Source of the DNA: Escherichia phage FL33
Sequence record: PP400788
DNA length: 64,000 bases
Strand: one strand, 5' to 3'
Shown piece after piece: positions 3,773 to 60,595 of the stretch. The notes under the pieces were generated by a model that was not told where the DNA came from, ran no database searches, and saw only the letters and a program-made list of their open reading frames with translations. The position numbers were made by a program, and so were the translations under genes. The stretch's first letter is position 1. Every line of letters starts with the position of its first letter.

Positions 3773-3801
3773 ATAGTACCACAGTATGCTTTGGTTGTAA
3801 A
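3773..3801 (-). promoter_or_regulatory. Early sigma70-type promoter (member of repeated element)
   Basis: Minus-strand TTTACA-17bp-TACTAT within conserved ~50-bp element upstream of motA. Confidence 0.6.
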
Positions 3802-3811
3802 CCGTTTTGTG

Positions 3812-3854
3812 AAAAAAATTTTTGAAATAAAAAAGGGAGAGCCGAGGCTCTCCC
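3812..3854 (-). terminator. Intrinsic terminator after gene 52
   Basis: GGGAGAGCC-TCGG-CTCTCCC hairpin followed on the minus transcript by a U-run. Confidence 0.65.
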
Positions 3855-5338: not shown

Positions 5339-5479
5339 TTACCATACTAGTGAATGTAGTGCCATAATAACATCAGAAATGAAAAGCACGACTTGAATTA
5401 ATCCGAACATTACTCCATAATATAACGCTATTAATAAAATAGCAAGGGCTAATGAATAGCCCAAGATTTTCTTAATCAT
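5339..5479 (-). CDS. Small hydrophobic protein (46 aa), 52.1-like
   Basis: ATG overlapping upstream stop (ATGA); hydrophobic; below ORF-track size cutoff. Confidence 0.45.
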   Translation of the reverse strand: MIKKILGYSLALAILLIALYYGVMFGLIQVVLFISDVIMALHSLVW

Positions 5480-5630
5480 TAGTAGATAACAACACAAATG
5501 TTAAATATGCACACATACCCTGGGCTAAAGCTTGTGAAAACACACTGCTAGCATCGATACAGATAGTTAAAACACATGCTACTATCCAACAAATAAATGA
5601 AATAACTCCTAATAATTTTGCGATATTCAT
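5472..5630 (-). CDS. Small membrane protein (52 aa), ac-like
   Basis: 52-aa hydrophobic ORF; start overlaps stp stop; T4 ac is about 51 aa at this position (memory). Confidence 0.5.
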
Positions 5631-5716
5631 ATTTTCCTCTGGCGTCCGAAGACGCCTTTGATTTTAAGATTGTTACGATAAAACTGCATCACATGTTCGT
5701 TATGGAAATTACTCAT
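5627..5716 (-). CDS. stp: Stp peptide (activator of PrrC anticodon nuclease / inhibitor of EcoprrI)
   Basis: 29-aa [32 protein letters not shown] matching remembered T4 Stp; ATG overlaps ndd stop. Confidence 0.75.
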
Positions 5717-6163
5717 TAATATGCCTGCAAAACAAATTTAAAGTTATCAGCCAACATACGGTTCATTTCTTCAAGTGTTTGATACTCAGAATGATGATTA
5801 CGAGTAAACGCTAAAGCTAACTGTCCTTTTCCAAATCCCGTCGTCAGAGGTTTCATCTTAGAAGCAGGCAGATAAAATACTGTGTATGGAACATTGTTAT
5901 TTGCAATAGTACGTGCAAGCTGAGACCGACGTTGACGAATATGACTTAGAACTGCGCTGAATCCTTGCTTAGAACGTTGATTACCTACATAAAATCGTGC
6001 AGACACACATGGATTACTAAATGGACGACCATCTAATTTACTTACTAAAAAGTTTAGATAAAATATCTTTATGTGGAACTCCCAAAAACCATTCACCGTT
6101 CTTGATTGTACCAATAACAGTAGCGCCTGCGTTGTTCAGATCAGTAACAGTCATATATTTCAT
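5716..6163 (-). pseudogene. ndd: ndd (nucleoid disruption) disrupted by frameshift
   Basis: ATG at 6163 opens 41 codons ([37 protein letters not shown]..) then stop at 6038-6040; remaining ~110 codons (..[23 protein letters not shown]..) are in +1 frame with no ATG. Confidence 0.7.
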
Positions 6164-6223
6164 ATTAATTTCCTCTAAATTATTTTCTACTCCAAGGCCG
6201 CATGAATACACACGGCCATTAAA

Positions 6224-6439
6224 TTACTCGTCGCAGTCGACGCTCAATTCCCAGAATTCTTCTACGGTATAAGTTTCAGTATCATTTTCAATACAGAAAC
6301 GTTCATTACTATTATTTGCTAAAGTAGCATTAACTGTCGGTTTCTCGCTAGTGCTCTTAAGAGGTGAAATACGAATTAACTGATCACCGTTATCTAAACA
6401 AAAAATTTCACCAACTTTTACATCTTTAAAAATTTTCAT
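6224..6439 (-). CDS. Hypothetical protein (ndd-denB interval)
   Basis: 71-aa co-oriented ORF. Confidence 0.5.
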   Translation of the reverse strand: MKIFKDVKVGEIFCLDNGDQLIRISPLKSTSEKPTVNATLANNSNERFCIENDTETYTVEEFWELSVDCDE

Positions 6440-6554
6440 AATTCACCTCAAGGAGTATAAAATCCAAATGCAGTTGTTGACCATCCCATCCAATATGGGA
6501 AATTTGCACCAATGTAAAACATAAGAATATAAAACCAACCGCTCAGCAAATTCA

Positions 6555-6773
6555 TCATTTTACACCATTCCAAATTGTTTCAACTACGGATTTTAAACCA
6601 TTTTGATGAATATCAATTCCGACTACTGTCATCAAATAGATTCCAACTACAACTGAACCTAAGGCAAAAATCAGCATGAAAATGAATAAAGCCGGAAAAA
6701 TATTATCGAAAAACCATTCAATAAATGTAAAAGCACTGCGTTTACGCTTCATATTTTCCTCACATAAATCCAA
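6555..6773 (-). CDS. Small membrane protein
   Basis: 72-aa ORF with hydrophobic core; start not refined. Confidence 0.5.
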   Translation of the reverse strand: MDLCEENMKRKRSAFTFIEWFFDNIFPALFIFMLIFALGSVVVGIYLMTVVGIDIHQNGLKSVVETIWNGVK

Positions 6774-14839: not shown

Positions 14840-15110
14840 TACAATTTCCTCATTAATTGAACAGTGGAGCGATGCGTTTCAGAAGAGTAGCAGCACCTTT
14901 GGCAAATTTTCCATTTTATTCTCCAAGTTGTTTTCTGTATCAGTAGTTGATATTGATATAGTACCATAATCAACTACTGATGTATATAGTTTTATGAAAA
15001 AAATTTTAAACTTTATGCATAGAGAGCTTTGCTATAATGTTTAATCCAACTTTCAGGAATGACTTTGTATGTTCCTAAAAATACCACGTTATACAACTTA
15101 ACACCGTCTT

Positions 15111-15500
15111 CTACCCACTGATGGTAATGTATCCACACATAGCACGAGTATAAACAGCCTTTCCATCATCTGGGATGAATTTAAATTCACAAGGAGCAAT
15201 GAACTTAATAGATTGACCGAGTTTCCACTTAAAGTCTACACCTACATGCGAAGTATCAATCGTTTCAATTCCTTTAGCGGGAACAGCTTTCAAAAACGCA
15301 GATTCAAGAAATTTCGCACGAACATAGCCAAACTGAGGTTTAGACTTTCCATCTTTAGGAATGATACGCACTTTTACTTCAGAATCTTCATCTTTAACAC
15401 CATGCTTAAGCTGAATGCTTACAATTTCGACCAATTTTCCTGCTGCTTTAGAACGGGATTTATCAGATACACGAGCAATTTCACCAATATTAATAATCAT
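15111..15500 (-). CDS. Hypothetical protein
   Basis: 129-aa ORF downstream of early-promoter-like element. Confidence 0.55.
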   Translation of the reverse strand: MIINIGEIARVSDKSRSKAAGKLVEIVSIQLKHGVKDEDSEVKVRIIPKDGKSKPQFGYVRAKFLESAFLKAVPAKGIETIDTSHVGVDFKWKLGQSIKFIAPCEFKFIPDDGKAVYTRAMCGYITISG

Positions 15501-60515: not shown

Positions 60516-60544
60516 ATAGTACCATAAAGCTTTATGCTTGTAAA
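60516..60544 (-). promoter_or_regulatory. Early sigma70-type promoter (repeated element)
   Basis: TTTACA-17bp-TACTAT. Confidence 0.6.
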
Positions 60545-60552
60545 CAGTTTTG

Positions 60553-60595
60553 TGAAAAATTTTTGAAATAAAAAAAAGGGAGCCCGAAGGCTCCC
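60553..60595 (-). terminator. Intrinsic terminator after nucleotidyltransferase gene
   Basis: GGGAGCC-UUCG-GGCUCCC hairpin followed by U8 on minus transcript. Confidence 0.7.

Follow-up and report, generated by a model that had tools for sequence, protein, structure and literature searches.

An 11-nt deletion splits ndd in Escherichia phage FL34, probably a genuine null allele of a dispensable T4-type early gene

The ndd gene is a classical non-essential early gene of phage T4, and both null mutants and region-D deletions are viable. In the window analysed here (the whole 64,000-nt stretch of DNA), the coding sequence of ndd is divided between two reading frames, which raises the question of whether this phage carries a genuine loss-of-function allele or whether the assembly contains an indel at this point. 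The original prediction, made from the sequence alone, had left these two readings side by side, and the evidence gathered here favours the genuine allele. The window sequence was 100% identical to Escherichia phage FL34 (PP400789.1), a Tequatrovirus from Danish pig faeces with E. coli MG1655 as its isolation host. The flanking genes of FL34 are arranged as in T4 (rIIB, denB.1, denB, ndd.6 to ndd.1, ndd, stp, ac, 52), with the position of ndd between ndd.1 and stp/ac/gene 52 conserved in an order matching T4 and PaulHMueller, and with an intact denB of 185 aa.

Anatomy of the split ndd gene

All features of the locus lie on the minus strand. Reading of the sequence placed a Shine-Dalgarno motif, GAGG, at 6172..6175, 8 nt upstream of the ATG, and this motif was kept in every aligned relative. 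From the ATG at 6163-6161 a 5’ fragment (6038..6163) of 41 codons runs to a TAA at 6040-6038, direct reading and the ORF list both agreeing with the frame and stop first proposed; it consists of 37 native Ndd codons and four out-of-frame codons (LFSK) before the stop, and appears in GenBank as a 41-aa “hypothetical protein” (XAO17651.1). The 3’ remainder (5716..6051) encodes F42 to Y152 followed by a TAA at 5718-5716 and is fully open in the +1 frame, with neither an ATG nor a ribosome-binding site of its own across its 111 codons. The ORF finder takes this remainder up to a TTG at 6114 (ORF 5716-6114), an offset between the two frames of (6163-6114) mod 3 = 1, i.e. +1, and so the expectation of a +1 continuation lacking an ATG, entered at TTG and running to 5716, was correct. 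GenBank starts the same remainder at the GTG at 6006, giving 96 aa named “nucleoid disruption protein Ndd”.

The assignment of the gene as ndd was upheld by matches of both pieces to the Pfam family Phage_T4_Ndd (PF06591), the first fragment covering profile positions 1-38 (E 4e-14) and the second positions 42-154 (E 8e-72). The split of ndd into two Pfam-matching pieces is far beyond chance. Members of this family have one continuous ORF of about 142-167 codons, and FL34 has 41 + 111 codons; being split over two frames, the FL34 gene is a pseudogene of the PF06591 family and not a functional member of it.

The junction between the frames was placed at 6051..6055 (about 161,326 in PP400789.1) by alignments, including one of 16 sequences, and by a BLAST indel list. 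Nucleotide alignment with T4, PaulHMueller, KMB23, SG1, GEP001, DCP2 and IMG/VR contigs revealed that FL34 is short of exactly 11 nt, TCTAAACCTGGATTTTACTTTTTAG in the relatives being reduced to TCTAAACTTTTTAG, where a deletion of about 11 nt had been estimated. The absent bases are CTGGATTTTAC, or equivalently ACCTGGATTTT, and with them the codons for P38-G39-F40-Y41 are lost. The two placements differ by a 2-nt AC microhomology at 6053-6052, an AC...AC ambiguity that marks this as a microhomology deletion. The T-rich repeats originally suggested as flanks do not border the deletion, and slippage between the T runs was rejected as its origin because it would not yield the observed junction. 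The length first given for the T4 protein (151 aa) was right and the peptide wrong, as ‘...SKLDGRPF’ belongs to the 152-aa T2/RB-type protein and T4 reads SKLGGPF.

Of the 478 phage records recovered with a 101-nt query across the junction, FL34 alone showed the 11-nt gap, in a collection that does not hold the sister isolate FL33 (PP400788), and the span length of matched records is an unreliable proxy for a frameshift, since DCP2 spans 111 nt yet is intact. FL33 is reported to be 99.95% identical to FL34 (PMC12032242). The junction pattern gave 0 matches in IMG/VR, and the exact 41-aa product was found only in PP400789.1 in an index of 153 billion genes. Past the deletion the old frame has stayed fully open and agrees with the sequence consensus of the relatives, and from the absence of decay there the lesion is judged to be recent. 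A promoter and terminator scan of 5400-6600 found nothing over shuffle expectation bearing on ndd.

Origin of the frameshift

We regard it as highly probable that the 11-bp loss in FL34 ndd is real, arose at the 2-bp AC microhomology and leaves the phage Ndd-null. One alternative, which we hold to be improbable, is that the phage has an intact ndd and that the 11-nt gap, together with other gaps of 1-2 nt, was introduced during CLC de novo assembly or consensus calling. The FL34 genome was sequenced by Illumina MiSeq 2x250 and assembled in CLC (PMC12032242), with the reads deposited at Mendeley (gwx5zpwgs5), and the paper describing it (PMC12032242) makes no mention of ndd, motB or frameshifts. 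FL34 has five private indels (in ndd, stp, motB, the a-gt.2/3 junction and a vs.1-like gene), and an assembly error would account for two of their properties: all five are deletions, a possible assembler signature, and at three of them (stp, vs.1-like and a-gt.2/3) the surrounding sequence of the relatives is otherwise the same. Consensus deletions of 11 nt are, however, rare for Illumina MiSeq 2x250 data in non-repetitive sequence. The number and the location of the indels also argue against such an error. The count of private indels fits natural divergence, in that FL34 gp43 DNA differs by about 0.1% from its closest relative and the indel:substitution ratio of FL34 against GEP001 is about 1:45, which makes five private indels ordinary divergence.

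As to location, every ORF of GEP001 was searched by tblastn against the window and the rest of FL34, and the only genes split by a frameshift genome-wide were ndd, motB and the vs.1-like gene. No essential, replication or structural gene in the whole genome was frameshifted in this search; DNA polymerase, helicase, primase, clamp and loader, topoisomerase and all head, tail and baseplate genes were intact. About half of a T4-type genome reportedly consists of essential genes, and random errors should strike these also, yet none was hit. That all five indels fall outside essential genes is what would be expected from selection acting on real mutations, not from random assembly errors, and we consider a genuine allele likely, with good confidence. 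A mutator DNA polymerase was entertained as the cause of the five deletions and rejected, as the gp43 protein is 100% identical in six other phages.

Split ndd genes also occur elsewhere. AugustSocin (Bas38, MZ501052.1), annotated with ‘Ndd part 1 / part 2’, has a -1 change in a T5 run at codon 42, 303Ecol101PP (OR062944.1) has a -1 change in a T5 run at codon 26, and a Logan contig from a public SRA run (SRR19918129) has an additional T (+1) in the codon-26 T run; Klebsiella phage KPV15 gave a two-piece tblastn match. AugustSocin and 303Ecol101PP resemble FL34 in being natural Tequatrovirus phages with ndd divided into a 5’ ORF of about 42 codons and a 3’ ORF in another frame, but their lesions are single-base deletions in T5 runs, they retain the PGFY codons and their motB is intact. 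Two further candidates were rejected as pseudogenes: the 117-aa ‘Ndd’ of WL-3 (MT968995.1) is an internal start miscalled in intact DNA, and the gene of ESh36 is cut by the end of a linear record. Otherwise ndd is one continuous ORF in >98% of relatives: 59 of the 60 records sampled gave a match in a single piece, the 117 protein clusters fall almost without exception at 142-167 aa, and all 14 loci in IMG/VR are intact, none with the FL34 allele. Judged by these comparisons, ndd is normally maintained, with losses that are rare but recurrent.

Recurrent loss could mean that the mutation is real but adaptive, the loss of ndd having been favoured because of a cost imposed by Ndd, or because a host defence senses the protein, either in the host used for isolation or in natural ones. 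At least 4 independent ndd frameshift alleles, all in the first 43 codons, would fit such selection, as would the isolation of both FL34 and AugustSocin on K-12 and the finding that the PUA-Cal-HAD defence selects frameshifts in denA, which acts in host-DNA degradation (bioRxiv 10.64898/2026.01.15.699771). Bas38, although ndd-negative, does not escape restriction by PUA-Cal-HAD (bioRxiv 10.64898/2026.01.15.699771), so ndd loss is unsupported as an escape route from that system. Moreover, T5 runs are expected frameshift hotspots, and with single-base lesions at such hotspots the recurrence needs no selection. Against the adaptive reading, too, ndd is intact in the vast majority of K-12-isolated relatives and FL34 is similarly damaged in unrelated dispensable genes, and we consider selected loss unlikely.

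That the split gene still yields an active Ndd or a two-piece Ndd, whether by a programmed +1 frameshift at AAA-CUU-U or by re-initiation, is hardly credible: the FL34 junction does read AAA-CUU-UUU, containing CUU_U, and three other genomes have a two-frame ndd, but a +1 product would be without the invariant PGFY motif, the first in-frame start past the stop is the GTG at 6006, which has no Shine-Dalgarno motif, and the remaining split alleles each have a lesion of their own, with shifts in opposite directions required (so that no common recoding mechanism can serve them) in a gene that is otherwise a single ORF. In prfB the slippery site is CUU followed by U, and FL34 ndd shares with the programmed +1 frameshift of prfB a CUU then U at the place where the +1 frame takes over; unlike prfB, it lacks a Shine-Dalgarno-like upstream stimulator, an A-site stop (the A-site codon is an ordinary UUU) and conservation in relatives. 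Relatives sharing a two-frame ndd with programmed frameshifting, which the original prediction had named as evidence to the contrary, were looked for and not found. By its sequence, the FL34 junction reads as a mutation and not as a recoding signal, though a trace of +1 read-through may conceivably occur at its prfB-like CUU_U.

Expected consequences for Ndd and the host nucleoid

For the deletion allele, translation would begin normally from the ribosome-binding site and ATG, add 37 native residues, pass into the wrong frame, add LFSK and stop. When 34 Ndd homologues with identities as low as 52% were aligned, G39, F40, Y41 and F42 proved invariant and P38 nearly so, and FL34 is without this G-F-Y-F motif as the codons for P38-Y41 are gone. 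AlphaFold modelled Ndd as a single alpha/beta domain with strands at 15-21, 39-45, 56-63 and 97-103 (pLDDT 74.6; a homologue of 50% identity was modelled at 77.0), and the break made by the deletion coincides with the beginning of this model's second core strand. With a single predicted domain broken at that point, neither fragment would be expected to fold. A true null allele is most likely the outcome, since a plausible restart codon and a frameshift signal are both absent.

Several T4 mutants offer a guide to what such an allele would do. Ndd is present at about 4000 molecules per cell (PMC6071114), and the deletion saΔ9, which removes 52.1-ac-stp-ndd-denB, still permits a burst of about 50% (PMC6071114). 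Loss of ndd and denB raised generalized transduction roughly tenfold (PMC12115623). FL34 resembles the T4 ndd point mutants and the region-D deletions (saΔ9, NB5060) in having lost the same non-essential early gene while remaining a viable phage. From the phenotype of the T4 mutants it would be expected that the host nucleoid is not moved to the periphery and that transduction is somewhat higher (PMC12115623, PMC6071114), so that in cells infected with FL34 the nucleoid would probably not migrate to the cell periphery as it classically does. The T4 mutants differ from FL34 in being laboratory strains, whereas FL34 was newly isolated from the environment, has denB intact and bears an 11-bp microhomology deletion of its own. 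Since ndd can be dispensed with on laboratory hosts, FL34 should stay viable, as its propagation and host-range testing also imply (PMC12032242).

FL34 thus probably has a new and genuine null allele at a dispensable locus that is already well known. FL34 serves as a wild-type reference in host-range work, yet is predicted to be Ndd-null, and with motB and stp also carrying lesions, host-takeover phenotypes should not be generalised from it. Among the changes with which generalized transduction by T4-type phages reportedly increases is the loss of ndd, a point relevant to the choice of phages for therapy (PMC12115623). The GenBank label “nucleoid disruption protein Ndd” on the 96-aa, GTG-started remnant masks a pseudogene, and this annotation needs correcting.

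The structural model also provided a lead, at the level of the predicted fold, connecting Ndd to GIY-YIG nucleases. The predicted beta-beta-alpha-alpha-beta-alpha order of Ndd fits the GIY-(x)n-YIG core in AlphaFold models, two models that share one alignment, with candidate motifs at G-F-Y (39-41) and F-Y-V-G (61-64). Of the residues considered as candidate counterparts of the catalytic Tyr (GIY), Tyr (YIG), Arg, Glu and Asn, Y41, R80/R83, E136 and N138 were invariant or nearly so in the alignment of 34 homologues, and the second Tyr (Y62) was F or A in some. Searches by sequence did not recover the link: the GIY-YIG Pfam family PF01541 matched none of the 34 Ndd members, a profile search of PDB sequences with Ndd gave no GIY-YIG match, hhalign probabilities stayed below 1% whether Ndd was compared with DenA or with four aligned GIY-YIG sequences, and none of the papers searched names Ndd together with GIY-YIG. 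If the link is true, the FL34 deletion excises the “GIY” strand, and if confirmed it would offer, for the first time, a structural way into the question of how Ndd binds host DNA and displaces it. A wider proposal, that ndd is a divergent GIY-YIG-fold relative of EndoII and a conditionally costly nucleoid effector repeatedly knocked out in wild T-even phages, with losses that are selected and not neutral, seems to us doubtful; under selected loss, FL34, AugustSocin, 303Ecol101PP and the SRA contig might represent, for example, escapes from a host system sensing the action of Ndd.

Other private deletions in FL34

On the reading of ndd as a genuine deletion allele, its lesion would be one of several private small deletions surviving in or beside dispensable early genes. 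The nearest of the others lies in stp (5627..5716, minus strand), making two private deletions within about 415 nt. The stp ATG (5716-5714) overlaps the ndd stop in TAATG, an arrangement by which stp may normally be translationally coupled to ndd, and as the start and stop overlap, early termination in ndd might, speculatively, lower stp expression. The stp deletion removes 2 nt at 5638-5640, near 161,740 of PP400789.1, CAGTGAGG becoming CAGAGG; this loses the TGA and lengthens Stp from 26 to 29 aa (…GRQ-RKI), with the new stop overlapping the ac start (ATGA). The stp of the nearest relative, 121/2022-2B, is identical save for the 2-nt gap.

The motB gene (15013-15500, minus strand) has a private 1-nt deletion at 15123, near 152,256 of PP400789.1 (ATTACCGATCA to ATTACCATCA), at a non-homopolymer site, and is thereby divided into a 129-aa ORF and a 41-aa remnant, annotated in GenBank as two ‘transcriptional regulator’ CDS. 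Joint loss of Ndd and MotB, both of which act on the nucleoid, was considered as a pattern and rejected, as motB is intact in AugustSocin and 303Ecol101PP. At the a-gt.2/a-gt.3 junction (about 44632 in the window and about 122,747 in PP400789.1, minus strand) a private 1-nt deletion (GATTATAAT to GATTTAAT) removes the first 9 or so codons of a 57-aa ORF or shifts its start, and at least 9 relatives are identical there save for the gap. The fifth deletion lies outside the window, in the vs.1-like macro-domain/‘phosphatase’ gene (about 100,467-100,942 in PP400789.1), where a private change of GGG to GG frameshifts the gene at about codon 130 of 159, near position 100,856, the closest relatives again being identical save for the gap.

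Some further features were observed during these comparisons. Gene 32 of GEP001 is annotated at 392 aa, apparently fused to the next ORF. Also outside the window, nrdA of FL34 is in two pieces around an HNH/I-HmuI-like homing-endonuclease ORF, and td has the expected I-TevI intron. Two similar intergenic insertions of about 40 nt relative to GEP001 lie at about 3795-3837 and about 60527-60564 of the window; both share ...CTTGTAAAC(C/A)GTTTTGTGAAAAA..TTTTT, and a small regulatory cassette present in repeated copies may account for them.
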